Part shown: positions 2,385 to 3,256 of the stretch, piece by piece
How positions within the stretch are numbered: the first letter of the stretch is position 1
How the letters are laid out: each line of letters starts with the position of its first letter
Source: a virus
Taxonomy: Duplodnaviria; Heunggongvirae; Uroviricota; Caudoviricetes
Strand: one strand, 5' to 3'
Virus record (IMG/VR): IMGVR_UViG_2778261256_000004
Location: 1 to 22,473 of that record
Length of the DNA: 22,473 bases
The notes under the pieces: model-generated
Told to the model about the DNA's origin: nothing
What the model saw: the letters and a program-made list of their open reading frames with translations, nothing else
The model's database searches: none
Translations under genes and position numbers: made by a program

Positions 2385-2405
2385 AAAAAAGCCCCGTTCA
2401 GGGGC
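2385..2405 (-). terminator. Rho-independent terminator for the upstream minus-strand gene
   Basis: Minus strand reads GCCCCTGAACGGGGC followed by TTTTTT (5-bp GC stem, 5-nt loop, 6-nt U run), 8 bp after the TAA stop at 2413-2415. Confidence 0.6.
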
Positions 2406-2412
2406 ATCAGTG

Positions 2413-3222
2413 TTATTTGCTAAGAGCAGCGAATAATCGTTCGAAATCGATAGTATCTATAGCACGCGTAAGCGCCGGAAGTTCAGCCTCAAAGTACCCG
2501 TGTCGATCGTAAAAGAAGGGACCGAAGAGCGAGGCATGTTGGATTCTACTTCGCCCCAGCCCGGACACACAGTTAAGCCCATTACCGGCTAAAAGGCTAA
2601 AAAACTTCTCTGGATTATCGTGGTAAAGCTGGGAATCAATGGTGGCGGTTAACTCTTCCATAGGGAAGCACACCCGCCCTGTATCCCAGGGATATTTAGT
2701 CCGAAGCATAAACATTGCTTTCAGCAATTCACATTGAGCGCGGATCGCGTCCGGTTCATAGCCAGATATGGAGACATAAGCCACGTCCCTCATTCCTGCG
2801 TCATCTTTGAAAGTCACGATAGAAGTAACATCCAGCTCTTTTTCGAAAGAGCAAGCAGCATCTACTGGACGCTGAAGTAAATCATTCGACTTAATGCGCT
2901 CGAGAATCCCTCCCCACATATCATTTAGATATTCGATATGAGCCAAAACCTTATCAAGACACTCTCGTGTAAACCATTCAGTATGCCCGCCACCGACGCT
3001 TTTCTCCCACGGCGCATTCCAGGGGAAAAAGGTTGCGTGTAAAGCCCGCTCAAGATTAACCATTACCAAACGCGTACCACGATAGACCCGTGAAAGCGCA
3101 AAATCGGGACTCACTTGTAGCCCTTTAAACCGTGCCAATGGACCACATGAAATGCCGATTTTAAAAGTATCTCCGTTCTCTGGCACCAGAACGTAGAGGT
3201 AGTGTTGTTTCTCTTCTTGCAT
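2413..3222 (-). CDS. Hypothetical protein with N-terminal T5orf172/MUG113-like (GIY-YIG superfamily) domain; unexpected between incA and parA
   Basis: 269-aa ORF with ATG at 3222 and TAA stop. The N-terminal 80 aa carry YLYVLVPENGDTFKIGIS ... LERALHATF ... GGGHTEWF, which fits the T5orf172 pattern (motif-level inference). The C-terminal 180 aa show no motif I recognise. Weak RBS. Confidence 0.65.
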   Translation of the reverse strand: MQEEKQHYLYVLVPENGDTFKIGISCGPLARFKGLQVSPDFALSRVYRGTRLVMVNLERALHATFFPWNAPWEKSVGGGHTEWFTRECLDKVLAHIEYLNDMWGGILERIKSNDLLQRPVDAACSFEKELDVTSIVTFKDDAGMRDVAYVSISGYEPDAIRAQCELLKAMFMLRTKYPWDTGRVCFPMEELTATIDSQLYHDNPEKFFSLLAGNGLNCVSGLGRSRIQHASLFGPFFYDRHGYFEAELPALTRAIDTIDFERLFAALSK

Positions 3223-3256
3223 ATCAATACCACTGCTTGATGAGAACCGCGCAAAT

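Follow-up and report, generated by a model that had tools for sequence, protein, structure and literature searches.

Replicon cassette of a P1-like phage-plasmid

The textbook model of iteron-controlled plasmid replication is P1, and phage-plasmids like it are now tracked as carriers of extended-spectrum beta-lactamase (ESBL) and mcr genes. We analyzed a 22,473-nucleotide stretch of the IMG/VR virus record IMGVR_UViG_2778261256_000004, referred to here as the window, with emphasis on an open reading frame (ORF), ORF269, that lies between repA' (the repA gene of the window) and the par operon. Positions are those of the window unless another locus is named. The product of ORF269 (protein X) is a T5orf172-domain protein, and ORF269, repA', parA, and parB are all read in one common direction (Table 1). 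An earlier note on this DNA had described an 810-bp ORF between incA and the par operon, codirectional with repA and the par genes, and the coordinates bear this description out. The replicon is of the "p0111" type, with its elements in the order origin iterons, repA', incA-like iterons, ORF269, and terminator. In the p0111-type replicon cassette of these P1-like phage-plasmids, ORF269 comes last among the genes.

Table 1. Features of the window and their positions
Feature	Position	Strand	Details
p0111-type replicon-specificity cassette	2347-4596	minus	replaces P1 spacer, incA, repA, and incC iterons (blastn against P1)
ORF269	2413-3222	minus	810 nt including stop, 269 aa, ATG start
N-terminal T5orf172/GIY-YIG-fold domain	2890-3222	minus	residues 1-111
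C-terminal acidic domain, modeled as winged helix	2416-2871	minus	residues 118-269; family-only at sequence level
Terminator-like hairpin and T-run	2381-2405 (read 2405 to 2381)	minus	GCCCC-TGAAC-GGGGC, tail TTTTTTGTGC (scan)
incA-like iteron array	3253-3513		at least six copies of TTGACTATRCGCGA between repA' and ORF269 (repeat search)
repA'	3515-4399	minus	294 aa from publicly annotated start (L009, L010, L012); longest ORF reaches TTG at 4435
Origin iterons	4482-4580		five copies, 21-bp spacing; counterpart of P1 incC (repeat search)
par promoter/operator region	2250-2346	minus	outside the cassette; marks its right boundary
parA	1048-2244	minus	
parB	30-1031	minus	
tRNA genes	11134-11206, 11212-11284, 12924-12996		Rfam RF00005, 65-73 bits
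upfA, mlp, ppfA, upfB, upfC			arranged as in P1

In a blastn comparison with P1 (NC_005856), positions 1 to 2346 of the window were 99.1% identical and positions 4597 to 8785 were 97.0% identical, with nothing matched in between. In P1, the place of these 2,250 unmatched bp is taken by 1,491 bp with the spacer, incA, repA, and five incC iterons. On the left, homology breaks off just outside the outermost origin iteron; the shared sequence beyond this breakpoint includes the DnaA box and Dam (GATC) sites annotated in the P1 oriR. The right breakpoint is 19 bp upstream of the -35 element of the par promoter (Ppar), 35 nt past the terminator and 67 nt past the ORF269 stop codon. The adjacent par promoter/operator region (query positions 1175 to 1271) is a 99 to 100% match to P1 records, including the annotated Ppar -35 and -10 elements and the ParA operator.

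Within the block, the product of repA' matches the Pfam models Rep3_C and Rep3_N and is 42% identical to P1 RepA, which is also the figure published for SJ46 (PMC5241659). The window iteron is TTGACTATRCGCGA, versus ATGTGTGCTGGAGGG in P1. Four of the incA-like iterons are in one orientation (3253-3395) and two are in the opposite orientation (3473-3513), and they form inverted pairs with the origin iterons (repeat search). The last one ends 30 nt ahead of the ORF269 start codon. A further iteron-like copy, TCGCTTATAGTCAAC, is located within the repA' coding sequence (3780-3796) and is kept at the equivalent place (9610-9630) in the 84% identical repA of a related locus, L002; it might be an internal RepA-binding site.

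The earlier note had taken ORF269 for an insertion between two modules of the conserved backbone. That interpretation was not sustained: homology to P1 ends at 2346 and does not resume until 4597, and the repA and iterons beside the ORF are not those of canonical P1. A simple insertion into P1 is ruled out by these breakpoints. Replacement of the whole replicon cassette was already pointed out in the JL22 paper (PMC9603915).

In P1 itself the interval from incA to Ppar is free of genes, as the earlier note had stated. In the P1 record, ca. 190 bp with no annotated feature separate the end of the last incA iteron (61487) from the Ppar -35 element (61296). When ORF269 and its three full-length homologs were compared with this spacer by tblastn, no remnant of the family was found (best E value, 0.56). 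The P1 spacer of 190 to 213 bp (L001 6298-6487, equivalent to P1 61297-61486) is itself without a counterpart in IncY plasmids with a P7-type par (ca. 115 bp) or in the elements that carry the ORF.

A second, independent cassette exchange

Three homologs of ORF269 are all in P1-like elements, with backbones ca. 67 to 72% identical to P1, and in each element the gene lies between the post-repA iterons and parA. Locus L002 has a RepA that is 84% identical to that of the window and the same iterons. The RepA of L003 is 83% identical to P1 RepA (IncY-like), and that of L005 is 43 to 48% identical to each of the others. In these four lineages, which have three iteron types, the start codon is 20 to 30 nt past the last incA iteron. 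One family member, P0004, was called 41 codons too long by gene callers, through the iterons, an artifact.

Loci L002 and L003 have 100% identical ParA proteins and flanks that are 96 to 98.6% identical, yet they carry different cassettes, p0111-like in L002 and IncY-like in L003. The swapped blocks (L002 8831-11019 and L003 6656-8944) have the same boundaries as those found between the window and P1, with the right breakpoint 84 nt past the stop codon. This is a second, independent cassette swap, in a second P1-like backbone lineage. Both of its alleles carry a family member. From the contexts of all of the homologs, the ORF269 gene belongs to the RepA-iteron specificity cassette.

Distribution of ORF269

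Among the plasmids in PLSDB, repA' was found in 399 and ORF269 in 401, a co-occurrence of ca. 1:1. The 401 ORF269 matches all had at least 90% identity, and 391 of them covered at least 80% of the query. The presence or absence of ORF269 is that of the whole cassette, and inside the p0111 cassette the gene is always present. Junctions of the empty P1 type were found in 144 PLSDB plasmids, versus ca. 390 with the ORF269-filled p0111-type junction. Reference P1 is therefore the exception, in that the commoner junction type has a fourth cassette gene, absent from P1 and not known to have been studied. The junction was empty in all three IncY plasmids with a P7-type par that were inspected. Twelve records in the phage collection have ORF269, including SJ46, RCS47, JL22, and phi456. 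Another p0111-like repA (77% nucleotide identity), on a 93.7-kb Escherichia coli plasmid (L017; CP042620.1 85524-92393), is followed by ca. 570 bp and then by a reversed phage tail gene, with no ORF269 homolog or parAB at that place.

The family was sought in two word-indexed passes over 5.8 billion proteins, by exhaustive hidden Markov model (HMM) searching of 1.84 billion representatives, and in GTDB genomes and IMG/VR. Near-identical copies of ORF269 form a cluster (P0001) of 1,241 members, beyond which only three further full-length lineages were found: P0004 (44% identity), P0009 (27%, from Salmonella enterica), and P0011 (24%, from a fecal metagenome). The GTDB genomes and IMG/VR yielded no additional lineages, only near-identical copies. 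Some 140 further proteins share the N-terminal domain alone. The nearest of these (P0012 to P0014) differ in context: one is on a phage contig that also has HNH genes, one is on a short contig, and one is in a chromosomal island among WYL and Mrr genes. These settings are uninformative for the family.

These distributions do not describe the cargo hotspot that the earlier note had proposed. The slot is either empty (P1 and P7-par plasmids) or occupied by one family only (the window, L002, L003/L004, and L005), and the hotspot proposal was dropped in view of this constant content and the ca. 1:1 co-occurrence with repA'. The alternative that the earlier note had allowed for, a backbone gene found at this junction in most P1-family replicons including P1, held in part: the gene is fixed in the p0111-type P1-like elements and has homologs in an IncY-like lineage, but P1 and the three P7-par IncY plasmids inspected lack it. 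In public records ORF269 is labeled as a "GIY-YIG nuclease family protein" or as hypothetical. In phage phi456 (OR339795.1, 39982-40788) a homolog is labeled "terminase small subunit" and looks misannotated. Both "cargo" and "terminase small subunit" are wrong annotations for ORF269.

Two-domain architecture of the protein

The T5orf172 assignment made in the earlier note was supported by profile searches, in which residues 8 to 85 matched the Pfam T5orf172 model (PF10544; E value, 9.5e-6; 26.5 bits versus a cutoff of 20). ORF269 also matched an endonuclease family, phrog_681 (E value, 4.8e-9), and, over its full length, phrog_2876, a family of unknown function. It matched nothing in NCBIfam and none of the PADLOC-DB 2.0 defense models at E values up to 1. 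The C-terminal half, which had been described as motif-free, indeed lacked matches: no Pfam, NCBIfam, or PADLOC model matched residues ca. 112 to 269. The four lineages align end to end, with the two-domain layout kept down to 24% identity. ORF269 is judged to be a genuine gene because homologs this divergent share both the layout and the invariant residues.

The N-terminal domain qualifies as a GIY-YIG fold. Nine residues (Y10, K21, G23, R31, E58, H62, G79, E82, and F84) are 92 to 100% conserved among 149 relatives and are all present in ORF269. Y10, K21, G23, R31, E58, H62, E82, and F84 are invariant across the four lineages and 35 intact alleles. By position, the motif residues appear to correspond to the GIY, YIG, Arg, and Glu motifs, and E82 would be the counterpart of I-TevI E75 and Odn E180. 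The nuclease activity of the Odn T5orf172 domain needs the equivalent Glu (PMC8263062). Searches of the N-terminal domain sequence against solved structures gave only chance matches to stromelysin (E value, ca. 1.3).

The C-terminal domain has no sequence relatives outside the family among the 1.84 billion representatives, Pfam, and PDB chains, and a profile-profile comparison (hhalign) with the RepA family gave a probability of 0.2%. Modeled alone, the domain was predicted with fair confidence; it had a predicted local distance difference test score (pLDDT) of 80 and a predicted template modeling score (pTM) of 0.79, and its core in the model was a beta-alpha-alpha-alpha-beta-beta winged helix. 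The top Foldseek match among viral models was a COG5527 plasmid-replication initiator (E value, 0.015; probability, 0.97). The predicted fold is nearest to the WH1 domain of Rep_3 iteron initiators, with modest scores that make this resemblance a lead rather than proof.

The four whole proteins have isoelectric points (pI) of 5.4 to 5.6 and their C-terminal domains have values of 4.9 to 5.35, versus 9.3 for RepA'. In none of the four lineages did residues 112 to 269 have a Pfam match to a Zn-finger module (CapR/DUF723/DUF4397) or a CxxC pair. C88 is the only cysteine that is invariant in the four lineages, and C218 is common only to ORF269 and P0004.

Expression signals

The earlier note had credited ORF269 with a weak ribosome-binding site and a private terminator, and both were found. 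No AGGAGG-like ribosome-binding site is located upstream of the gene. The sole Shine-Dalgarno-like candidate, AGTGG, precedes the ATG by 7 nt; AGTGG also precedes, by 6 nt, the ATG of the L002 homolog, which is 44% identical to ORF269. The terminator-like hairpin begins 8 nt past the stop codon, with its stem from 2405 to 2391 (GCCCCTGAACGGGGC) followed by the T-run. When the sequences after the L002 and L003 homologs were read by eye, no comparable hairpin with a T-run was visible. A scan of the window found no promoter-like or terminator-like site on the coding strand between repA' and ORF269. A weak promoter candidate, TAGTCA-N17-TAAAGT, was noted by eye upstream of the L002 gene and has no counterpart in the window.

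The gap of 20 to 30 nt after the last iteron is probably too short for a separate ORF269 promoter. Expression is expected to be low and coupled to that of RepA, by read-through from the autoregulated repA promoter combined with a weak ribosome-binding site. The terminator in the window would shield Ppar from read-through out of repA and ORF269.

Selection and null alleles

Diversity was computed for the 35 loci that have intact copies of all four genes. The ratio of nonsynonymous to synonymous nucleotide diversity (piN/piS) was 0.33 for ORF269, with 34 amino acid-changing and 25 synonymous-only polymorphic codons, versus 0.01 for repA, 0.00 for parA, and 0.05 for parB. ORF269 is therefore under some purifying selection and is evolving much faster than its neighbors. 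Its piS was 0.028, versus 0.046 to 0.054 in repA, parA, and parB, despite its far higher nonsynonymous diversity; a recent sweep or recombination of the segment is possible.

At least five independent null alleles of ORF269 were found. Codon S112 is changed to TAG in five IMG/VR loci with one shared haplotype (L041, L042, L045, L046, and L047; ORF at 4001-4810), Q228 is changed to TAA in L036, a 103,445-bp contig that is as long as SJ46, and W68 is changed to TAG in L056. The other two alleles are a rearrangement after nt ca. 296 (L059) and a 2-bp deletion (L011). Broken alleles account for 8 of 43 IMG/VR and GTDB loci, plus L011, or about one-fifth of those sampled. The S112 stop falls exactly at the domain boundary and would leave a free 111-aa nuclease domain, and split alleles of this sort may also underlie two separate protein clusters, P0002 (181 aa) and P0003 (168 aa).

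ORF269 is not a core component of the replicon, as it is missing in P1, in the P7-par plasmids, and in L017 and is represented by null alleles elsewhere. It is dispensable for replication, and the existence of null alleles and of relatives without the gene makes a role that replication needs unlikely.

Possible functions of ORF269

We tentatively favor the possibility that ORF269 is a weakly expressed selfish or conflict endonuclease, similar to homing endonucleases, that is linked to its cassette, a reading that we consider plausible though short of probable. It is based on the intact motif residues, the terminal nuclease domain with a separate second domain, the location at the edge of an exchanged block beside essential genes, the relaxed constraint, and the recurrent decay. 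Homing endonucleases have terminally placed nuclease domains, and T5orf172 nuclease genes are located at genetic-exchange boundaries beside essential genes (PMC10448857). The strict conservation of the GIY-YIG motif residues argues for catalysis having been kept.

According to this model, ORF269 would be transcribed weakly, via read-through from the autoregulated repA promoter over RepA-bound iterons, and translated from a weak ribosome-binding site. The protein would be a targeted endonuclease comparable to free-standing GIY-YIG/T5orf172 homing endonucleases and would cut a rival P1-type element or replicon allele lacking its own cassette. Repair of the break from the ORF269 cassette would convert all of the heterologous sequence that lies between the oriR and Ppar flanks common to both elements, or else the rival would be lost. 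Once fixed, the nuclease would decay, which would account for the frequent null alleles.

Several observations weigh against a selfish nuclease. ORF269 and its C-terminal domain are acidic in all four lineages, whereas a basic character is typical of characterized GIY-YIG homing endonucleases and of domains that bind DNA sequence specifically. A Zn-finger module (CapR/DUF723/DUF4397) is present in 87% of T5orf172 homing endonucleases (PMC10448857) but not in ORF269. Presence or absence of the gene differs between cassettes and not inside the p0111 cassette, in which it is fixed, and both alleles of the L002/L003 swap have a homolog, which leaves no empty homing site in that pair. Selection for a match between RepA and iterons would by itself suffice to explain where the cassette boundaries lie. 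That the gene was retained beside RepAs now only 42% identical points to recurrent positive selection for a function, in addition to any selfish drive. Cleavage, a target site, and homing are predictions of the model.

The main rival explanation, possible if rather unlikely, is that ORF269 is a replicon accessory factor whose C-terminal domain docks on the cognate RepA (a contact of the WH1-WH1 type) or on iterons and brings the GIY-YIG domain to its own origin or incA. There it might modulate initiation, handcuffing, or copy number or process replication intermediates. The fixed distance of the start codon from the last incA iteron across four lineages and three iteron types is consistent with this explanation, as is the movement of the gene with RepA and iterons in both cassette swaps. 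The family tree also roughly tracks the RepA type, with N-terminal domain identities of 60% between the window and L002 and 57% between L003 and L005. The top structural neighbors of the modeled C-terminal domain are Rep_3 WH1 domains, and an acidic domain with a pI of ca. 5 beside the basic RepA' would suit a protein-protein contact. However, P1 and the P7-par IncY replicons function without the gene, the p0111-like RepA of another phage-plasmid (L017) is found without it, and five independent null alleles are in otherwise intact elements. Furthermore, between the window and L002 the C-terminal domains are just 33% identical where the RepAs are 84% identical and the iterons are the same, and the C-terminal domain and RepA have no sequence similarity in the hhalign comparison.

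A bolder reading, which we regard as unlikely, is that ORF269 and its three sister lineages are an unrecognized class of replicon-borne, initiator-mimicking nucleases. In such proteins the cutter would be steered by the Rep-WH1-like domain, via iteron DNA or a rival RepA, in warfare or gene drive between P1-like replicon cassettes. This would be a plasmid-encoded counterpart of ICP1 Odn and could explain the exchange of RepA-iteron cassettes between near-identical elements.

A maintenance accessory, an exclusion or defense factor, and a regulator were the functions suggested in the earlier note. The second of these, taken as a cargo nuclease with which the prophage-plasmid attacks incoming unrelated phages or plasmids to the benefit of the host, we consider quite unlikely. 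Odn is a precedent for T5orf172 nucleases serving in phage-satellite conflicts (PMC8263062), ORF269 seems to be placed for transcription in the plasmid state, its fast protein evolution would suit an arms race, and the N-terminal domain relative P0014 is located among chromosomal WYL, Mrr_cat, and Hypoth_Ymh genes. However, ORF269 is a lone gene with no partner or sensor, it matched no PADLOC model, and its null alleles are frequent. The same family occupies the slot everywhere, rather than the varied content of a hotspot. Unlike mobile defense genes, the family was found only in P1-like elements at one position in the searches of 5.8 and 1.84 billion proteins.

It is improbable that ORF269 is a functionless relic, an old gene of an ancestral P1-like replicon that is slowly decaying as it hitchhikes with repA. 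The proportion of broken alleles, a piN/piS ca. 30 times that of the neighboring genes, and the complete loss of the gene from the P1 and P7-par lineages would be expected of a relic. However, piN/piS is still below 1, and the motif residues do not vary in the 35 intact alleles or in lineages down to 24% identity. The full two-domain layout is kept where the RepAs share only 42%, which is unexpected without selection.

To our knowledge, based on established P1 biology and the annotation of the P1 record, the regulation of P1 par and rep needs no additional factor of the kind that a final alternative assumes. This alternative, a domesticated, noncutting DNA-binding regulator like PLE CapR that would repress or insulate the adjacent par or rep units, has a precedent in the origin of CapR from DNA-binding modules related to homing endonucleases (PMC8096241) and would suit the location of the gene, which has an autoregulated unit on either side (repA and the par operon), but it is the least probable explanation because the GIY-YIG-type motif residues are strictly conserved and the protein is acidic and lacks a CapR-like Zn finger.

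If ORF269 is an active nuclease directed at rival replicon alleles, it would provide a mechanism for cassette swapping and for competition between coresident phage-plasmids, and homing-endonuclease and Odn-type biology would no longer be confined to lytic phages but would take in plasmid maintenance modules. Should it contact RepA or iterons instead, it would represent a new accessory layer of iteron-replicon control.

Other differences from P1 in the window

A second block without megablast similarity to P1 (12090-12679) replaces the P1 upl-promoter/tciA region (L018 3209-3788). It contains an ORF of 144 aa on the plus strand (12215-12649) that is probably a divergent tciA allele. Another ca. 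166 bp (11388-11553) could not be aligned to P1 and is located just downstream of two adjacent tRNA genes. The three tRNA genes of the window correspond by position to tRNA-Asn, tRNA-Thr, and tRNA-Ile of P1.

Comparison with known systems

The resemblance of ORF269 to SLX1 and other GIY-YIG structure-specific nucleases is at the superfamily level only: identity is 11 to 17%, and ORF269 has no RING/PHD domain and no Slx4-type partner. The closer parallel is with free-standing GIY-YIG/T5orf172 homing endonucleases, such as T4 Seg and the class of ICP1 Gp53, Gp121, and Gp130. Like these, ORF269 has a terminal nuclease domain with a separate second domain, stands alone in an intergenic slot beside essential genes, is located at the edge of a block exchanged among close relatives (PMC10448857, PMC2988022, and PMC2330249), and is under relaxed constraint, with degenerate alleles. 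Unlike these, ORF269 is acidic and has no Zn-finger module, resides in the plasmid-maintenance replicon of a phage-plasmid rather than in a lytic-phage gene cluster, and is fixed in its cassette rather than patchy, with one swap in which both alleles have a homolog. Its cleavage and homing, in contrast to those of this class, are predictions.

Odn (ICP1 Gp88) joins a T5orf172 nuclease to a domain resembling an initiator DNA-binding domain, as ORF269 may do if the modeled fold of its C-terminal domain is correct, and both belong to a setting of modular, swappable RepA and iteron replicons (PMC8263062). For the C-terminal domain of ORF269, sequence homology to an initiator DNA-binding domain of the kind seen in Odn was not found in the hhalign comparison or among the 1.84 billion representatives. 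Odn is encoded by the attacking phage, whereas ORF269 lies inside a replicon that it might target.

The replicon itself is similar to that of P1 (incC-repA-incA, IncY) in its five origin iterons at 21-bp spacing, its Rep_3-family RepA, its downstream iteron array in both orientations, and its flanks, which are the DnaA-box/GATC part of oriR and Ppar. It differs in the sequences of RepA and the iterons. It also has an extra gene and terminator after the downstream iterons, where P1 has a spacer of 190 to 213 bp and P7-par plasmids have ca. 115 bp.

The gene and the replacement of the cassette were already in databases and in one paper, with the gene labeled as "unknown" or as a "GIY-YIG nuclease family protein." New here are the finding that the gene, from a tiny family, is conserved and fixed in position within replicon cassettes of three iteron specificities; the population-genetic signature of weak constraint and recurrent null alleles; and, as a lead from modeling, a C-terminal domain with a predicted Rep-WH1-like fold.

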